From the IMG/VR virus record IMGVR_UViG_2675903352_000005: 18,069 nt of DNA. One strand, written 5' to 3'. A program made the translations under genes and the position numbers. Within the stretch, counting starts at the first letter, position 1; each line of letters begins with the position of its first letter. The notes under the pieces are model-generated. The model was not told the DNA's origin. It saw only the letters and a list, made by a program, of their open reading frames with translations, and ran no database searches. Of this stretch, positions 1,657-8,116 are shown in pieces. The DNA comes from a virus (Duplodnaviria > Heunggongvirae > Uroviricota > Caudoviricetes).

Positions 1657-2709
1657 ATGGCTAATACTGTAAAAATATCCAGTTGTGAGTTAGTCAACGC
1701 TGATTGCCTGGAATTTATCCAGACCTTACCGGAAAACTCTGTCGATCTGATAGTCACAGACCCGCCATACTTTAAAGTGAAGCCCGAGAGCTGGGATAAC
1801 CAGTGGAAGGGGGACGATGATTACCTGAAATGGCTGGACCAGTGTCTGGCGCAGTTCTGGCGGGTACTGAAGCCCGCCGGAAGTCTTTACCTGTTCTGTG
1901 GTCATCGCCTGGCATCTGACACCGAAATTATGATGCGTGAACGCTTTAATGTGCTGAATCACATTATCTGGGCGAAGCCGTCAGGACGCTGGAACAGGTG
2001 CAACAAGGAAAGCCTGCGGGCGTATTTCCCGGCAACAGAGCGCATTCTGTTTGCCGAACATTATCAGGGGCCATATCGCGGCAAAAGTGACGGCTATGCG
2101 GCAAAAGAAAGTCAACTCAAACAGCACATAATGGCACCGCTGATTTCGTATTTCAGGGATGCTCGTGCCGAACTGGGTATAACGGCAAAACAAATTGCCG
2201 AAGCCACAGGTAAGAAAAATATGGTTTCCCACTAGTTTGGTGCCAGTCAGTGGCAGTTGCCGAATGAGGCTGACTATCGGAAGTTACAGGCACTGTTTTC
2301 CCGTATAGCGGCAGAGAAGTTTCAGGAACAACAACTGGAACAACCACACCACCAGCTGGTGGCATCTTATGATTCACTGAATCGCAAATATTCTGAATTG
2401 CTGGATGAGTTTAAATCTCTCCGGCGCTATTTCTCCGTATCAGTCTCCGTGCCTTATACCGATGTCTGGACGCATAAGCCCGTTCAGTTCTACCCGGGTA
2501 AACATCCGTGCGAGAAACCGGCGGATATGCTCCGGCAAATAATCAATGCCAGTAGTCGACCTGGTAATCTGGTCGCTGATTTCTTTATGGGATCCGGTTC
2601 CACAATAAAAGCAGCAATGGCGCTGGGGCGTCGGGCGTTAGGTGTTGAACTTGAGTCAGAGCGGTTTAATCAGACGGTGAAAGAGGTAAGTGAACTGGTG
2701 GGGAAATAA
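1657..2709 (+). pseudogene. DNA amino-methyltransferase (N6-adenine or N4-cytosine), split by an in-frame TAG at 2233-2235
   Basis: Two ORFs in the same frame (1657-2235 and 2257-2709) are separated only by one amber codon. The N-terminal part carries the catalytic motif DPPY (VTDPPYF); the C-terminal part carries the AdoMet-binding motif FxGxG (FFMGSGST). Both are needed in one polypeptide, so the intact gene would encode about 350 aa. Confidence 0.75.
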
Positions 2710-2716
2710 TTCTGGT

Positions 2717-2742
2717 GGCCACGTTGCGTGGCCTTTTTATTT
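2717..2742 (+). terminator. Rho-independent terminator-like hairpin between the methyltransferase and the holin
   Basis: Perfect 7-bp stem GGCCACG-(ttg)-CGTGGCC at 2717-2733, followed by TTTTTATTT. Confidence 0.5.
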
Positions 2743-2785
2743 CCAACACAGCACCCGCAAATATCGCGAGGTGAGAGATGACGAA

Positions 2786-3121
2786 ATGCCTCATAACCCA
2801 AATACCTGGCCGGACTGGCTGGAGTTGTTTCAGAGCTGGTGGCGTGGAGACACACCGCTGGGTGCAGTGATTATGTCGATCGTTATGGCTGGTTTGCGCA
2901 TCGCCTATTTTGGCGGTGGTGGTGGCTGGAAGCGAAAAACGCTCGAGATTTTGCTCTGTGGCGCTCTGACGCTGACCTTTGCATCCGCTCTTGAGTATGT
3001 CGGATGGCCTAAATCACTTTCTGTTGCCATTGGTGGCGGCGTGGGGCTGATCGGTGTCGATGCTATTCGTGGGGCTGCAATGCGAGTAATTGGTAACAAG
3101 TTTGGTGGCTCTAAGGAGTAA
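2786..3121 (+). CDS. Holin, three predicted transmembrane segments (111 aa)
   Basis: ATG 2786 follows GAGGTGAGAG. Three hydrophobic stretches (LGAVIMSIVMAGLRIAY, LEILLCGALTLTFASALEYVGW, LSVAIGGGVGLIGVDAI) and a charged C-terminus; it sits directly upstream of the endolysin. The longer track ORF from GTG 2690 would run through the terminator hairpin, so I reject that start. Confidence 0.8.
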   Translation: MPHNPNTWPDWLELFQSWWRGDTPLGAVIMSIVMAGLRIAYFGGGGGWKRKTLEILLCGALTLTFASALEYVGWPKSLSVAIGGGVGLIGVDAIRGAAMRVIGNKFGGSKE

Positions 3122-3124
3122 TTT

Positions 3125-3601
3125 ATGCAGGTACTAAATTCCCAGCGTAAAGCTTTCCTCGATATGTTGGCGTGGTCAGAAGGAACGGATAACGGGCGAC
3201 AGCCAACCCGCAATCACGGCTACGACGTTATTGTAGGTGGTGAGCTATTCACGGATTACTCCGATCATCCTCGCAAACTTGTCACGCTAAACCCGCAACT
3301 TAAATCAACCGCAGCTGGACGTTACCAGCTTCTTTCCCGTTGGTGGGATGCCTACCGCAAGCAGCTTGGCCTGAAAGACTTCTCTCCGAAAAGCCAGGAC
3401 GCTGTTGCACTGCAGCAGATTAAAGAGCGTGGCGCTTTACCAATGATTGATCGCGGTGATATTCGTCAGGCTATCGACCGTTGCAGCAATATCTGGGCTT
3501 CACTACCGGGCGCTGGTTATGGTCAGTTCGAGCATAAAGTTGGCAACCTGATTGCAAAATTCAAAGAAGCAGGCGGAACGGTCAGAGAGATTGAGGTATG
3601 A
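3125..3601 (+). CDS. R: Endolysin, lambda R-type lytic transglycosylase (158 aa)
   Basis: Near-identical over most of its length to lambda R as I recall it ([22 protein letters not shown]...[35 protein letters not shown]). Confidence 0.95.
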
Positions 3602-4035
3602 GCAGAGTCACCGCGATTATCTCCGCTCTGGTTATTTGTATCATCGCCTGCCTGTCATGGGCTGTTAATCATTACCGTGATAACGCCATTACCTATAAAG
3701 AACAGCGCGATAAAGCCACGTACATCATCGCTGACATGCAGAAGCGTCAACATGATGTAGCAGAACTCGATGCCAGATACACAAAGGAGCTTGCTGATGC
3801 TAACGCGACTATCGAAAGTCTCCGTGCTGATATTTCTGCTGGGCGTAAGCGCCTGCAAGTCGCCGCCACCTGTGCAAAGTCAACGACCGGAGCCAGCAGC
3901 ATGGGCGATGGAGAAAGTCCAAGACTTACAGCAGATGCTGAACTCAATTATTACCGTCTCCGAAGTGGAATCGACAGGATAACCGCGCAGGTTAACTATC
4001 TGCAGGAGTACATCAGGACGCAATGCCTGAATTAA
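3598..4035 (+). CDS. Rz: Rz inner-membrane spanin (145 aa)
   Basis: N-terminus [33 protein letters not shown] matches lambda Rz. Start overlaps the R stop (ATGA). Coiled-coil central region. Confidence 0.9.
3797..3982 (+). CDS. Rz1: Rz1 outer-membrane lipoprotein spanin, embedded in Rz in the +1 frame (61 aa)
   Basis: ORF lies entirely inside Rz. AAGGAG sits 8 nt upstream of ATG 3797. Signal peptide with lipobox (LLGVSAC) followed by a proline-rich mature part ([13 protein letters not shown]), as in lambda Rz1. The track start at 3770 is an alternative. Confidence 0.8.
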
Positions 4036-4076
4036 TTCCTCAGCATCAAAAACTAACTTAATTTGTTGGATAGTGA

Positions 4077-4388
4077 ATGAAAATTTATATTGCCGGACCA
4101 ATGACGGGATATGAGAATTTTAATCGTGACGCCTTTAATAAAGAGGCTGAGCGTTTGTCACGTCATGGTCATTCGGTCCTGAATCCAGCCACTTTACCCA
4201 ATGGCCTGACGCAATGTGAATACATGGATATTTGCTTTGCAATGCTTCGTTCTGCTGATGCTATTTTGATGCTTCCTGGCTGGAAAGCGTCAGCTGGAGC
4301 AACTGCTGAGTATTATTACGCATACAAGATGGAGATGCCGGTATTCACTACGCTGAATTACCCGCCAGCTTGTTCCTCTGTAGCATAA
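4077..4388 (+). CDS. Hypothetical protein (103 aa), nucleoside 2-deoxyribosyltransferase-like (DUF4406-type) N-terminus
   Basis: N-terminus MKIYIAGPMTG and the overall pattern resemble the small nucleoside 2-deoxyribosyltransferase-like family. Located just after the lysis cassette, where lambda carries bor. Family assignment is from memory only. Confidence 0.5.
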   Translation: MKIYIAGPMTGYENFNRDAFNKEAERLSRHGHSVLNPATLPNGLTQCEYMDICFAMLRSADAILMLPGWKASAGATAEYYYAYKMEMPVFTTLNYPPACSSVA

Positions 4389-4489
4389 AAATCTCTTTGT
4401 TTCTCGCGTGCGACCGTGGTCGCACGATATCGTTGTCTCTTGTGGTGATTTATTTGTTTGAGCCGGTTTACAACTAACAGGATATAAAT

Positions 4490-4939
4490 ATGCAAGAAGA
4501 AGCAAAGAAAATTCTTGTTGATTTATTGAAGAAGGCCAGCGATGGAATTGATTCCGCCATTGCATTCAGTCAGGCTCAGATTCCGGATGTTGTTCATCAG
4601 TTGCTGATATGGAATATGGTTAATAGCCTGATTAAAACATTAATAGCGATTTCAACAATCCCGCTGGTTTTCTGGTTTATGAAGAAACAGTACCAAAAAG
4701 TTGAAATTGGTAAGTTCGATGATGAAGGATGGTCATGGGATAAGGGAAAGCCTAAATACAAACCTACTCTGATTTGGGAAAGTAACGGTGAGATTAGTTT
4801 TCTTATCTTACCATTAGCAGCAGTTTTTGTTATGTGGGTAAGTTTTATTATTGCTGTAGTAACCAATATGACATGGTTAAAAATCTGGCTGGCACCTAAG
4901 TTATATCTAATCGAATACGCAGCATCACTAATTAAATAG
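4490..4939 (+). CDS. Hypothetical membrane protein (149 aa), AT-rich cargo gene
   Basis: AGGA sits 9 nt upstream of the ATG. Hydrophobic segments (LLIWNMVNSLIKTLIAISTIPLVFWFM, ISFLILPLAAVFVMWVSFIIAVVT, WLKIWLAPKLYLI). Base composition is clearly more AT-rich than the flanking phage genes. Followed by a hairpin. Confidence 0.55.
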   Translation: MQEEAKKILVDLLKKASDGIDSAIAFSQAQIPDVVHQLLIWNMVNSLIKTLIAISTIPLVFWFMKKQYQKVEIGKFDDEGWSWDKGKPKYKPTLIWESNGEISFLILPLAAVFVMWVSFIIAVVTNMTWLKIWLAPKLYLIEYAASLIK

Positions 4940-4948
4940 CCCATTACA

Positions 4949-4974
4949 AAAGCCACTCGCTACAGAGTGGCTTT
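4949..4974 (+). terminator. Terminator-like hairpin after the membrane-protein gene
   Basis: 10-bp stem AAAGCCACTC-(gctaca)-GAGTGGCTTT. The downstream T tract is weak, so this may be only a stabilising hairpin. Confidence 0.35.
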
Positions 4975-5280
4975 GATAATGGCTTATACCCTACACGGGA
5001 TAACTTAACTAATATCCCTTTTAACGGATAAAGGTATTTAAGCCTGACACATCATGCGCTGCACCGTCGCCGTATTCCCGCATTAACTATGACCGTAGCC
5101 TGACGGGGAACTCCTTCTGCGCGAGTGTGCGGGGGTGGAAGAAACAGGACACTTACACAGATTCTTGTGGGCACGATGCTATGTCTTTCTGGATTATCCA
5201 GATGCCATTCATGCAGGGCGCTGTATCAGATGTTCGTCAGAACTGTCAGGCTGACGGGTCCTCCCGGTGGGGTAGCCTGC

Positions 5281-5301
5281 CACGGGGCGGGAGCGTCGCG
5301 G
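5281..5301. other. Candidate cos site (cosN-like), putative 12-nt cohesive end GGGCGGGAGCGT at 5285-5296
   Basis: CACGGGGCGGGAGCGTCGCGG closely resembles lambda cosN (ACGGGGCGGCGACCTCGCGGG) as I recall it. It lies about 196 bp upstream of the small-terminase start, as in lambda (about 190 bp), and is followed by an AT-rich cosB-like region. Confidence 0.4.
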
Positions 5302-5480
5302 AAAAAGGCTAGTTTTTGCATTTCCATGGCGGCGGCAGCATGTTTAGTAATTTATTGATAATTAAAAGTTATTTCTCTTTTCACCTGTACAATATTTTTT
5401 TCTCCCTGTCATTAGACCAGTTTGCAATTAATTGAAATATATAAATAAACCTGATTTTCACCTGCCAGATGGAGTTGCTT

Positions 5481-6008
5481 ATGTCAAATGTGAGCGGGAT
5501 CGGTGATGCTTATTACTGGAGTGTTTTTAAAATCGCCGAGGCCTTTGGGCTTCACCGGGACACAGTAAAAAAACGGCTCCTCGCGGCCAACACTCCTGTG
5601 GCTGCGACTGTCAGGGGGAACCCCGTTTACGCCCTGCAGCATGTCGGGCCCGCCCTGTTTAGTGTGAAGCATGAGGCAGCAGACTCTGTTCATGATCCAT
5701 CCCGTATGGAGCCGAAAGAGAGAAAGGACTGGTACCAGTCTGAAAATGAAAGGATCAAGCTGGAAAAGGAGCAGCGAAAACTCATCCCAGTTGATGAAGT
5801 AGTCATCGTCTATTCGTCCATGAGAAAGGCTGTCGTCCAGGTTCTGGAGACAATTCCGGATGTTCTTGAACGCGATTGCGCCCTGACTCCTCAGGCCGTC
5901 GGCGTTGTACAGCAGGCCATTGATGACCTGCGATACACTCTTCAGGAAAAATCCTACGAGGCTTGTGCTGCTGAATTAATTCCTGATGAGGAAGGAGAGA
6001 GTCTCTAG
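5481..6008 (+). CDS. Terminase small subunit, Nu1-like (175 aa)
   Basis: GGAG sits 7 nt upstream of ATG 5481; the track start at 5469 has no ribosome-binding site. N-terminal helix-turn-helix region (YYWSVFKIAEAFGLHRDTVKKRL), acidic C-terminus, immediately upstream of the large terminase. Confidence 0.8.
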   Translation: MSNVSGIGDAYYWSVFKIAEAFGLHRDTVKKRLLAANTPVAATVRGNPVYALQHVGPALFSVKHEAADSVHDPSRMEPKERKDWYQSENERIKLEKEQRKLIPVDEVVIVYSSMRKAVVQVLETIPDVLERDCALTPQAVGVVQQAIDDLRYTLQEKSYEACAAELIPDEEGESL

Positions 6009-6016
6009 GAGGAATA

Positions 6017-8116
6017 ATGGGTTTTTCATCAGCCCGAAATTTGGGAAGGGACATATCGGCAGGATTTTCCCCACCACGTCGCATGCCGATTTCGGAGGCT
6101 GTTAAAAAATTCATGCGTGTTCCCAAGGGGGCTGGTAACTCGGTGCCATGGGATCCTGAACTGACACCCTACATCATTGAGCCCATGAACTGCCTGGCAT
6201 CGCGTGAATACGATGCGGTGATTTTTGTTGGTCCTGCGCGAACAGGGAAGACCATTGGTCTGATCGATGGATGGATTGTCTATACCATCGTTTGCGATCC
6301 TTCGGACATGCTCGTTGTGCAGATGACCGAAGATAAGGCCCGCGAGCATTCTAAAAAGCGCCTCGACAGAACGTTCAGAAGCAGTGCGGCGGTAAAGAAA
6401 AGAATGAGTCCACGTCGTAACGACAATAATGTTCATGATAAGACGTTCAGGGATGGCTCGTTCCTTAAAATTGGTTGGCCCTCGGTCAACATTATGTCGT
6501 CGTCGGATTACCGGTTTGTCGCCTTAACCGATTACGACCGTTTTCCGGAGAATATCGACAGCGAGGGTGATGGTTTCTCCCTGGCCTCAAAACGTACCAC
6601 CACATTTATGTCCGCCGGGATGACTCTGGTGGAGAGCTCGCCGGGACGTGACATCTGCGACAGCAAATGGCGACGTAAGTCGCCTCATGAAGCGCCACCG
6701 ACGACTGGTATTCTTTCCCTTTACAATCGTGGTGACCGCCGCCGCTGGTACTGGCCATGTCCGCACTGCGGTGAATATTTTCAGCCAGCCATGGATGCCA
6801 TGACCGGCTACCGTAATGAACCGGATCCCTTTAAAGCCAGTGAGGCGGCGTATCTACTTTGCCCGCACTGCAGCGGCATTATCACTGCGGAGAAAAAGCG
6901 TGAGCTCAATAGTGCAGGAGTCTGGTTGCGTGAAGGTCAGGTCATTGATCGTAACGGCAACGTTTCCGGTGAACCGCGCCGCTCCCGTATCGCCAGTTTC
7001 TGGATGGAAGGGCCAGCTGCTGCGTATCAGACCTGGGCGCAACTGGTTTACAAATTACTGACTGCAGAACAGGAATACGAGACAACCGGAAGTGAAGAAA
7101 CACTCAAGACGGTTATCAATACCGACTGGGGATTACCTTATCTTCCTCGTGCCAGCATGGAGCAACGAAAAAGTGAATTGCTTGAGCAGCGGGCAGAGCC
7201 AGTTCCTTCCCGCAGTGTGCCGGATGGCGTTAATTTCCTTGTGGCGACAGTGGATGTGCAGGCGGGACGTCATCGCCGTTTTGTGGTTCAGGTAACGGGC
7301 TATGGCAGCCGTGGCGAACGCTGGATTATTGATCGTTACAACATCACGCAGTCATTGCGCGGTGACAGCGACGGGGAGAGCCAGCGAATTGATCCGGCCA
7401 GCTATCCGGAAGACTGGGATGTCCTGCTGACGGATGTTTTTCATAAAAGCTGGCCGCTGGCCTCCGATCCTTCTCAACAAATGCGACTGATGGCAATGGC
7501 GGTGGACTCCGGCGGTGAAGACGGGGTCACTGATAATGCCTATAAATTCTGGCGTCGTTGCCGTCGTGATGGCCTTGGTAAACGTATTTACCTGTTTAAG
7601 GGCGACAGCATCCGGCGCGCAAAACTGATCAGCCGTACATTCCCTGATAACACCGGACGAACGGGCCGACGGGCGCAGGCCGCAGGTGATGTGCCGCTCT
7701 GGCTTCTTCAGACGGATGCCCTGAAAGACCGGGTGAATAACGCGTTATGGCGTGACTCGCCAGGTCCCGGCTATGTGCATTTCCCTGACTGGCTGGGGAG
7801 CTGGTTTTACGACGAACTGACGTATGAAGAGCGGAGCAGTGACGGGAAATGGAGTAAACCGGGTCGCGGTGCCAACGAAGCTTTTGACCTGATGGTGTAT
7901 GCCGAGGCTCTGGTCATTCTGCATGGATACGAAAAGATCCGCTGGCCGGATGCACCGGAGTGGGCGAGCCGGGAAACCTGGCTGGAGTGTGTCCCGGACA
8001 GTACCGAACCGTCACCCTCACCGGAACCGGTATCCACGCCTGTTAAAAAACAAAAACGGAAGAAAACAGTAACTGACGATGTTAACCCCTGGCTGACTTC
8101 CGGAGGATGGTTATGA
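6017..8116 (+). CDS. Terminase large subunit, lambda gpA family (699 aa)
   Basis: AGGAGG precedes the ATG. Walker A-like GPARTGKT, paired CPHCG/CPHCS motifs as in lambda gpA, and a C-terminal nuclease-like region. Size and position fit. Confidence 0.9.
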   Translation: MGFSSARNLGRDISAGFSPPRRMPISEAVKKFMRVPKGAGNSVPWDPELTPYIIEPMNCLASREYDAVIFVGPARTGKTIGLIDGWIVYTIVCDPSDMLVVQMTEDKAREHSKKRLDRTFRSSAAVKKRMSPRRNDNNVHDKTFRDGSFLKIGWPSVNIMSSSDYRFVALTDYDRFPENIDSEGDGFSLASKRTTTFMSAGMTLVESSPGRDICDSKWRRKSPHEAPPTTGILSLYNRGDRRRWYWPCPHCGEYFQPAMDAMTGYRNEPDPFKASEAAYLLCPHCSGIITAEKKRELNSAGVWLREGQVIDRNGNVSGEPRRSRIASFWMEGPAAAYQTWAQLVYKLLTAEQEYETTGSEETLKTVINTDWGLPYLPRASMEQRKSELLEQRAEPVPSRSVPDGVNFLVATVDVQAGRHRRFVVQVTGYGSRGERWIIDRYNITQSLRGDSDGESQRIDPASYPEDWDVLLTDVFHKSWPLASDPSQQMRLMAMAVDSGGEDGVTDNAYKFWRRCRRDGLGKRIYLFKGDSIRRAKLISRTFPDNTGRTGRRAQAAGDVPLWLLQTDALKDRVNNALWRDSPGPGYVHFPDWLGSWFYDELTYEERSSDGKWSKPGRGANEAFDLMVYAEALVILHGYEKIRWPDAPEWASRETWLECVPDSTEPSPSPEPVSTPVKKQKRKKTVTDDVNPWLTSGGWL

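Follow-up and report, generated by a model that had tools for sequence, protein, structure and literature searches.

Two neighbouring genes in the cargo slot of an Escherichia albertii prophage, an orthologue of N15 gene 57 and a membrane-protein gene, are probably independent accessory genes

Introduction

IMG/VR virus record IMGVR_UViG_2675903352_000005 (Caudoviricetes) is a stretch of 18,069 nucleotides of prophage DNA, called the window below. Between its lysis genes and its packaging genes, two open reading frames (ORFs) follow each other on the + strand. The first (4077-4388) encodes a protein of 103 amino acids (aa) starting with MKIYIAGPMTG, which belongs to the Pfam family DUF4406, and the second (4490-4939) encodes a membrane protein of 149 aa. 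An earlier note, made from the sequence alone, had placed both ORFs at exactly these positions and regarded them as one cargo module, possibly of the defence type. The ORFs are indeed there, and the analysis leads to a different view of their relationship. The two genes are very probably independent and acquired separately, because they do not co-occur, because variants of the same slot carry only one of them, because phage N15 has gene 57, the counterpart of the first gene, on its own, and because their GC contents differ (44.6% vs 36.4%). The explanation that we favour overall, and hold to be reasonably probable, is that of two independent accessory genes, one for a nucleotide enzyme and the other for a stand-alone membrane protein.

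According to this explanation, gene 4077-4388 is the resident last gene of a late block of the N15 type, composed of DNA methylase, holin, endolysin, Rz, and gene 57, and the block ends, in the window, at an N15-type SopB centromere site. Gene 4490-4939 belongs to an AT-rich cassette of 630 bp that was inserted directly past this site. The 103-aa enzyme would serve the phage's own nucleotide-pool handling during lytic growth. The 149-aa product would be a two-pass inner-membrane protein that acts alone at the membrane and is probably made in lytic growth by read-through. Functional assignments draw on the fold, the conserved residues, one domain fusion, and the gene neighbourhoods. Public databases already contain sequences identical to both proteins, and the two families are catalogued ones; only the interpretation is new.

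The two genes do not travel together

Loci carrying either gene, from IMG/VR and from other phage records, are cited below by their L numbers. Of 75 IMG/VR loci with the membrane gene, examined with up to 10 kb on each side of it and with 29 diverse DUF4406 queries, 65 have no DUF4406 gene (46 of the 75 reach at least 8 kb upstream); reciprocally, the membrane gene is missing from 76 of 80 DUF4406 loci. These counts describe the best 80 loci per search, many of which are near-identical prophages, and ignore kinship. In 5,426 complete genomes of E. coli, DUF4406-like DNA is present in 1,343 and the membrane gene in 216. Thus, the joint conservation expected of a two-gene module is not observed.

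The composition of the slot itself leads to the same conclusion. L087 has Rz, the DUF4406 gene, and a palindrome described below, and the membrane gene is absent. L016 has Rz, the palindrome, and the membrane gene, and the DUF4406 gene is absent. L022 has only the membrane gene and a gene for a 286-aa protein (PHROG 2571). L083 has the DUF4406 gene and the greater part of the 286-aa gene; of the membrane gene, just the final few bases are present. N15 has gene 57 and no homologue of either the membrane gene or the 286-aa gene. The idea of a single module advanced in the earlier note is therefore not sustained, given the absence of co-conservation and the single-gene variants found in the same slot. 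The reading of the pair as a defence module fares no better, since no PADLOC model matches either protein, or the product of the relatives' 286-aa gene, at E<=1. As for known function, no characterised homologue fixes that of either protein.

Where both genes are present, in the remaining 10 of the 75 loci, the 286-aa gene always stands between them. The order DUF4406, 286-aa gene, membrane gene is found with constant spacing in 16 of 82 loci (15 of 80 from IMG/VR) and in 10 of 75 in the wider set. The 286-aa gene lies at 3170-4030 in L001 and is also present in L002, L003-L006, L015, and L017-L023; its product contains a VVIIDD stretch and has no Pfam, NCBIfam, or PADLOC match.

A SopB-type site and a cassette boundary separate the two genes

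The spacer between the DUF4406 gene and the membrane gene is 101 bp long and contains an 18-nt near-palindrome, GTGCGACCGTGGTCGCAC, at 4408-4425 (no strand assigned), which the earlier note had missed. The window has one copy of it, vs 0.04 expected by chance. The 18 nt fit the SopB-site pattern GTGCGACC-NN-GGTCGCAC exactly and are identical, as reverse complement, to the core of the SopB-binding centromere sites IR1 and IR4 of N15, a linear plasmid prophage (Table 4, PMC7205306); one flank (GATATC) is that of IR3. A late-operon terminator and an operator had been considered for this palindrome, and both were dropped once the exact match to the N15 sites was found.

In N15, copies of the site are located at 35930, 41124, and 45561. 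The copy at 41124 immediately precedes the annotated late promoter; the copy at 45561 follows gene 58 and is annotated as a putative terminator. The N15 block running from the methylase through the lysis genes to gene 57 is thus bracketed by two such sites. In the phage group of the window, the palindrome recurs beside the extra segments of relatives, with several sites per genome. Unlike N15, the window has no sopA or sopB, and no other partition gene, among its annotated ORFs. One sibling copy of the prophage stands at the end of a 264-kb contig, which suggests integration. Since the prophage appears integrated and the window lacks sopAB, the palindrome may be an inherited relic and not a working centromere.

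The extent of the membrane-gene cassette was determined by mapping segments of the window with blastn on L087, L016, L022, L083, and L001. Homology to L087, which has no membrane gene, stops at 4425 and resumes at 5056; in L087, only some 10 bp separate the palindrome from the counterpart of window position 5056. Hence, the cassette starts directly after the palindrome and occupies 630 bp (4426-5055, + strand; 36% GC). The cassette boundary at the palindrome supports separate origins of the two genes.

On the packaging side, the cassette is followed by a conserved non-coding segment of 78 bp (5056-5133, no strand assigned). Positions 5056-5132 are duplicated in E. coli relatives (in L001 at 2937-3012, besides the main collinear match), with one copy starting some 10 bp past the first palindrome and the other lying beyond the membrane gene. 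Such a pattern is expected if 5056-5133 marks the original junction between palindrome and segment, a junction that would be older than the insertion of the cassette. Compared with L001, exactly 1,170 bp are missing from the window, a stretch that contains a second palindrome copy, the duplicate of 5056-5132, and the 286-aa gene. An RNA gene was also considered for the GC-rich stretch 5050-5310 and the repeated 220-bp element of the relatives; it was rejected, as Rfam at gathering thresholds gave no match in the window.

Base composition sets the membrane gene apart as well. Its GC content is 36.4% (36% at third codon positions) vs 51.9% for the window, and the 450-nt stretch with the lowest GC content of the whole sequence falls within it; just 0.7% of all 450-nt stretches are at or below 37% GC. 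The AT-richness pointed out in the earlier note is therefore real. The DUF4406 gene, at 44.6%, is mildly low.

The 103-aa protein has a minimal nucleoside deoxyribosyltransferase-type fold

The 103-aa protein matches DUF4406 (PF14359) with 114.4 bits, against a cut-off of 22 (E=3e-33), over residues 1-90, corresponding to positions 1-90 of the 91 of the Pfam model. It also matches PHROG 355, which bears the same label, and has no NCBIfam match. The family Nuc_deoxyrib_tr (PF05014) scores 21.9 bits, below its gathering threshold of 28.8. The likeness to nucleoside deoxyribosyltransferases (NDT) that the earlier note had proposed is thus confirmed, and the relationship to the PF05014 family is at the level of clan and fold only. 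The AlphaFold2 model, built from 29 homologues, has a predicted local distance difference test (pLDDT) score of 90.3, and its top structural matches are NDT, MilB, DNPH1, and 1T1J, with targets of 119-165 residues. On this model, the protein is confidently assigned to the flavodoxin-like alpha/beta fold of the NDT/DNPH1/MilB superfamily, of which it is a minimal member. In the model, the fold extends to about residue 90, beyond which the tail is disordered and not conserved.

In the NDT/DNPH1/MilB superfamily, the glutamate of the GTAFE motif is the covalent nucleophile. A profile alignment to trypanosomatid NDTs (6QAI, 2A0K) places Tyr4 of the 103-aa protein on the tyrosine of the IYIAGP motif and Glu78 on the GTAFE glutamate; phmmer searches of PDB sequences with the protein itself gave no match, so that the weak NDT matches come from the profile only. 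Among DUF4406 homologues down to 51% identity (29 homologues), 26 positions are invariant, including Y4 (in YIAGPMT), D51 (in YMD), S72, and E78. In human DNPH1, the triad is Y24/D80/E104 and the phosphate is bound by S98, six residues before the nucleophile (PMC10603095). The order Y4/D51/S72/E78 matches the DNPH1 set, and the spacing from Ser to Glu is six in both proteins.

Given the alignment of Tyr and Glu to the NDTs, together with the DNPH1-like order and Ser-Glu spacing, the protein could be a glycosidase-type enzyme, namely a retaining nucleotide N-glycosidase; we give this about even chances. The N-glycosidic bond that such an enzyme would cleave is most likely that of a nucleoside 5'-monophosphate, possibly a modified one. 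Glu78 would be the covalent nucleophile, Tyr4 and Asp51 would assist, and Ser72 would hold the phosphate.

Among characterised proteins of this fold, DNPH1 (also called Rcl) is a 2'-deoxynucleoside 5'-phosphate N-hydrolase, and MilB and BcmB are N-glycosidases of CMP and hydroxymethyl-CMP. The 103-aa protein shares with them the fold and, by alignment or order, the catalytic residues. However, identity is only about 20%, the 103-aa protein is about 30-50 residues shorter, and it is devoid of the C-terminal helix through which each subunit supplies its partner with a phosphate-binding residue. Moreover, it carries invariant motifs that are specific to DUF4406 (N16, NPAxLPxG, YMD, and R58). Finally, the structural-genomics protein 1T1J (Pfam DUF1937; 20% identity) is uncharacterised and adds no functional information.

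Gene 57 of N15 and the distribution of DUF4406

The closest point of comparison is the late region of N15. The product of N15 gene 57 (NP_046953, recorded as 'DUF4406 domain-containing protein') shares 79% aa identity with the 103-aa protein over residues 1-97. The N15 genes follow each other in the order adenine methylase (gene 52), holin, lysozyme, Rz-like gene, gene 56, gene 57, gene 58, hairpin, gene 59, and genome end. The window has in common with it the series methylase, holin, lysozyme, Rz-like gene, and gene 57, followed by an IR-type SopB site with the packaging end beyond. It differs in that gene 56, before gene 57, and gene 58, between gene 57 and IR4, are both missing and in that the cassette with the membrane gene has been placed after the IR site. 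N15 gene 58 is a C5 cytosine methylase gene, which overlaps gene 57 by 20 nt (N15 44233-45541). A C5 methylase gene also follows the DUF4406 gene in at least five related loci. The adjacency of DUF4406 and methylase genes hints at a link to 5-modified cytosine nucleotides. MilB, the best characterised of the structural matches, hydrolyses hydroxymethyl-CMP.

The position of the gene varies with distance. In DUF4406 relatives at 74-96% identity, it stands after the lysis genes. In more distant ones (57-67%), it stands just after replication genes (DnaC-like loader or DnaB, DUF1627, DUF977/Ren-like), and the replication-gene neighbours in these prophages look Stx-like. More widely, DUF4406 is present in 555 phage records, including phages of Vibrio, Mycobacterium, Gordonia, Arthrobacter, Pseudomonas, and others, and in some of these records genes for exonuclease, SSB, or DnaN adjoin it. 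In gp147 of mycobacteriophage Thibault, DUF4406 is fused to a MazG-like (PRA-PH) pyrophosphohydrolase domain (L174 1486-2217). This distribution fits an enzyme of the nucleotide pool that serves the phage, and not one half of a membrane-coupled defence pair.

Two Arthrobacter phage proteins labelled 'deoxycytidylate deaminase' and 'MazG-like pyrophosphatase' also match DUF4406 (L175 1477-1848; L176 1501-1869). Neither matches a deaminase or MazG-type family, and one of them is just below the threshold for NDT. From these matches, the labels look like annotation errors.

The 149-aa protein and its gene

The 149-aa protein belongs to PHROG 3054, of unknown function (E=1e-57), and is called 'phage transmembrane protein' in some sources. 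It has no Pfam family at E<=0.1 and no NCBIfam or PADLOC match. Two hydrophobic helices are found, at residues 43-61 and 106-124 approximately, and the same two are found in 41 of 42 family members. Hence, the proposal of a membrane protein with two or three transmembrane helices holds for the membrane protein and for two helices, and the third helix falls away. Conservation is strong in two amphipathic helices, one at the N-terminus (1-40) and one at the C-terminus (125-149); the hairpin and its loop vary in sequence and length.

The family is large, with 2,446 clusters at E<=0.001 in an exhaustive profile search. Pfam scans of 42 distant relatives returned only scattered single-member matches to unrelated families, and Foldseek of the model against the PDB returned nothing significant. 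When PDB sequences were searched with the profile, the matches were limited to designed coiled coils and helices of G-protein-coupled receptors. Exclusion of superinfecting phages, or another form of host takeover at the level of the membrane, is our best guess for the role of the protein, and a tentative one.

In lambdoid phages, most copies of the gene stand directly after the N antiterminator gene and before the recombination genes, and the early-left copies inspected end in a canonical intrinsic terminator. The copy of L026 has terminators on both sides (3940-4011 and 4450-4490), and the roughly 35 nt before its start codon leave no room for a promoter. The gene also occurs in virulent phages, within a same-strand run of early genes of Justusliebigvirus and following the RNA polymerase in a Salmonella phage of the N4 type. 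In Vibrio phage 455E52-1, it is antisense between tail-completion and head-closure genes. The coordinates of the homologues in virulent phages are L178 2501-2905, L179 2501-2896, and L164 2977-3414. The membrane gene thus behaves as a stand-alone mobile gene.

In this respect, it can be compared with the morons of lambdoid phages and with sieB. As in lambdoid morons, the membrane cassette is a discrete insertion of 630 bp, its base composition is unusual, and a hairpin follows the gene. Because a relative has the flanking genes next to each other without it, and because its GC content deviates, it qualifies as a moron, although no promoter of its own was detected for the membrane gene. Its slot and behaviour are like those of lambda bor, which in lambda lies on the strand opposite to the late operon. 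In contrast, the membrane gene is on the late-operon strand, and neither Bor nor any other named moron product is homologous to the protein that it encodes. As for sieB, most homologues of the membrane protein are encoded just after gene N, and one is next to sieB in a P22-like phage. However, the membrane protein differs in size and in number of helices, and hhalign against the protein of the SieB region of a P22-like phage gave a probability of 0.2%, that is, no homology.

Expression of the two genes

A simple scan of the coding strand from 3900 to 5500 detected no promoter-like (sigma-70) site. The membrane gene is preceded by an AGGA Shine-Dalgarno-like sequence. It is followed, starting 10 nt after its stop codon, by a terminator-like hairpin read in the sequence (4949-4974, + strand), AAAGCCACTC-GCTACA-GAGTGGCTTT, which has a 10-bp stem and a weak T tail, TTTGATAAT; a formal terminator scan called none on the coding strand, this hairpin included. 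In early-left copies of the gene, a canonical terminator occupies the corresponding position. Elsewhere, both genes are in operons transcribed in lytic growth, and both occur in virulent phages. The simplest reading would be that both are made by read-through of a Q-antiterminated late transcript.

Surroundings of the slot

Upstream of the two genes are the lysis genes. A lambda-type holin gene is listed as an ORF at 2690-3121, and sibling copies call a 111-aa gene there, at about 2786-3121. The endolysin gene (GH104) is at 3125-3601. The Rz spanin gene (3598-4035, + strand; Pfam Phage_lysis, E=1e-35) forms the upstream border of the slot, and the ORF at 3770-3982 that overlaps it in another frame, with the lipobox LLGVSAC and a proline-rich segment, is probably Rz1. 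Downstream, the slot is bordered by the gene of the small terminase subunit of the DUF1441 type (5469-6008, + strand; PF07278, E=2e-44; PHROG 141), itself followed by that of the large terminase subunit of the GpA type (6017-8116). In related phages, a KilA-N gene, a C5 methylase gene, an HNH gene, the 286-aa gene, or nothing is found at the same place, in agreement with the description of a variable cargo slot in the earlier note.

The host of the prophage is Escherichia albertii, and the 103-aa protein is 100% identical to a protein of this species. The same arrangement is present in about 17 contigs of sibling prophage copies. Before the lysis genes, the N6/N4 DNA methylase gene (1657-2709) has an in-frame amber codon at 2233-2235 (TGG to TAG, G2234A), and it is intact (350 aa) in three sibling copies that are otherwise 99.8% identical. 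Over 8.3 kb, 14 of the 16 differences between the window and sibling L166 are within the methylase gene, 13 of them in 2416-2613, a clustering that suggests a recombination patch.

Alternative explanations

The proposal that the NDT-like protein and the membrane protein form a joint defence, exclusion, or abortive-infection pair, with a nucleotide sensor or cleaver and a membrane effector, finds some backing. The two genes are neighbours on one strand within a variable cargo slot, the membrane gene stands out by its foreign base composition, and NDT-like domains serve as effectors elsewhere (literature mentions concern retron Eco1-type systems). It is nevertheless extremely improbable, as the genes do not co-occur, as either gene is found alone in the same slot, as they are separated by a centromere-type site and by a cassette boundary, as neither a PADLOC match nor a coding-strand promoter was found, and as both families are present in virulent phages and in lytic-phase operons. 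An ancestral system of three genes, of which the window would be a remnant deprived of the middle one, would account for the constant spacing of the DUF4406, 286-aa, and membrane genes and for the fact that the window falls short of L001 by exactly the 1,170 bp that contain the 286-aa gene. However, the triple is confined to close relatives (94-96% DNA identity), for which shared descent is a sufficient explanation. Other combinations occupy the slot (L022 and L083, and the single genes of L016 and L087), N15 has gene 57 alone, most membrane genes stand alone after N, and the 286-aa protein matches no defence family. This second explanation is thus also very improbable.

Other explanations bear on one protein at a time. 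The DUF4406 protein could be a counter-defence protein that binds or cleaves an immune nucleotide of the host or a molecule derived from NAD, in line with the resemblance of its fold to the TIR/SLOG type. This appears unlikely, because the best structural matches are NDT, MilB, and 1T1J and not TIR, because the fusion with a nucleotide pyrophosphohydrolase domain suggests chemistry of the nucleotide pool, and because the literature does not tie the family to counter-defence. The membrane protein, for its part, might be a lysis component, either a timing regulator of the antiholin kind or a holin accessory, since its gene is downstream of those for holin, endolysin, and Rz/Rz1 on the same strand and since two transmembrane helices recall class II holins. 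A charged C-terminal tail is typical of holins, whereas the C-terminus here is a conserved amphipathic helix. In most phages the gene is far from the lysis genes (after N, in the structural module, or in the early region), the protein matches no Pfam or PHROG holin family, and L087 has the same lysis cassette without it. A role in lysis is accordingly quite improbable.

The explanation by two independent accessory genes, a nucleotide enzyme and a stand-alone membrane protein, has to face several observations that weigh against it or its parts. Concerning the enzyme, the mapping of residues on DNPH1 is one of order and spacing and not a residue-level superposition, and hhalign of the DUF4406 profile with a human DNPH1 sequence gave no meaningful alignment. 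NDT and DNPH1 have a C-terminal extension by which the active site of the neighbouring subunit is completed, and DUF4406 lacks it; the protein might therefore bind its ligand instead of cleaving it. Also, 3 of the 29 homologues have Asn at D61, which corresponds to the conserved acid preceding strand 3, and the literature on DUF4406, PF14359, or NDT in defence or anti-defence yields annotation mentions only, with no functional study of the family. Concerning the membrane protein, the model is of moderate quality (pLDDT 70) and the distribution of charges leaves the topology ambiguous. With respect to expression, weak promoters could escape a simple scan, so that expression in the lysogen is possible. 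Finally, the conserved triple does exist in one clade of E. coli phages, and it could be a functional unit there.

Implications

The result is first of all a correction, in which an apparent two-gene defence module becomes, very probably, two unrelated genes separated by a plasmid-partition site that may be a relic. It also illustrates how little can be concluded about a system from genes being neighbours in a phage cargo hotspot.

A bolder view would make both genes single-gene weapons in conflicts between phage and host or between phages. DUF4406 would then be a new minimal class of N-glycosidases destroying a specific nucleotide, the 149-aa family would consist of exclusion or takeover proteins, and the SopB of a co-resident plasmid-prophage might silence the cassette via the site. 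Taken jointly, these claims are unlikely. If they were true, candidate targets of DUF4406 would be a 5-modified pyrimidine nucleotide linked to the neighbouring methylases, a host immune signal, or an NAD-derived molecule, and the 149-aa protein would be the founding member of a new family as large as some 2,400 clusters.

Apart from this view, DUF4406 is widespread, since it is present not only in the phage records mentioned above but also in about a quarter of complete E. coli genomes, with its catalytic-looking Tyr/Asp/Ser/Glu set intact. Both families are large and phage-wide, and each offers a tractable single-gene target.

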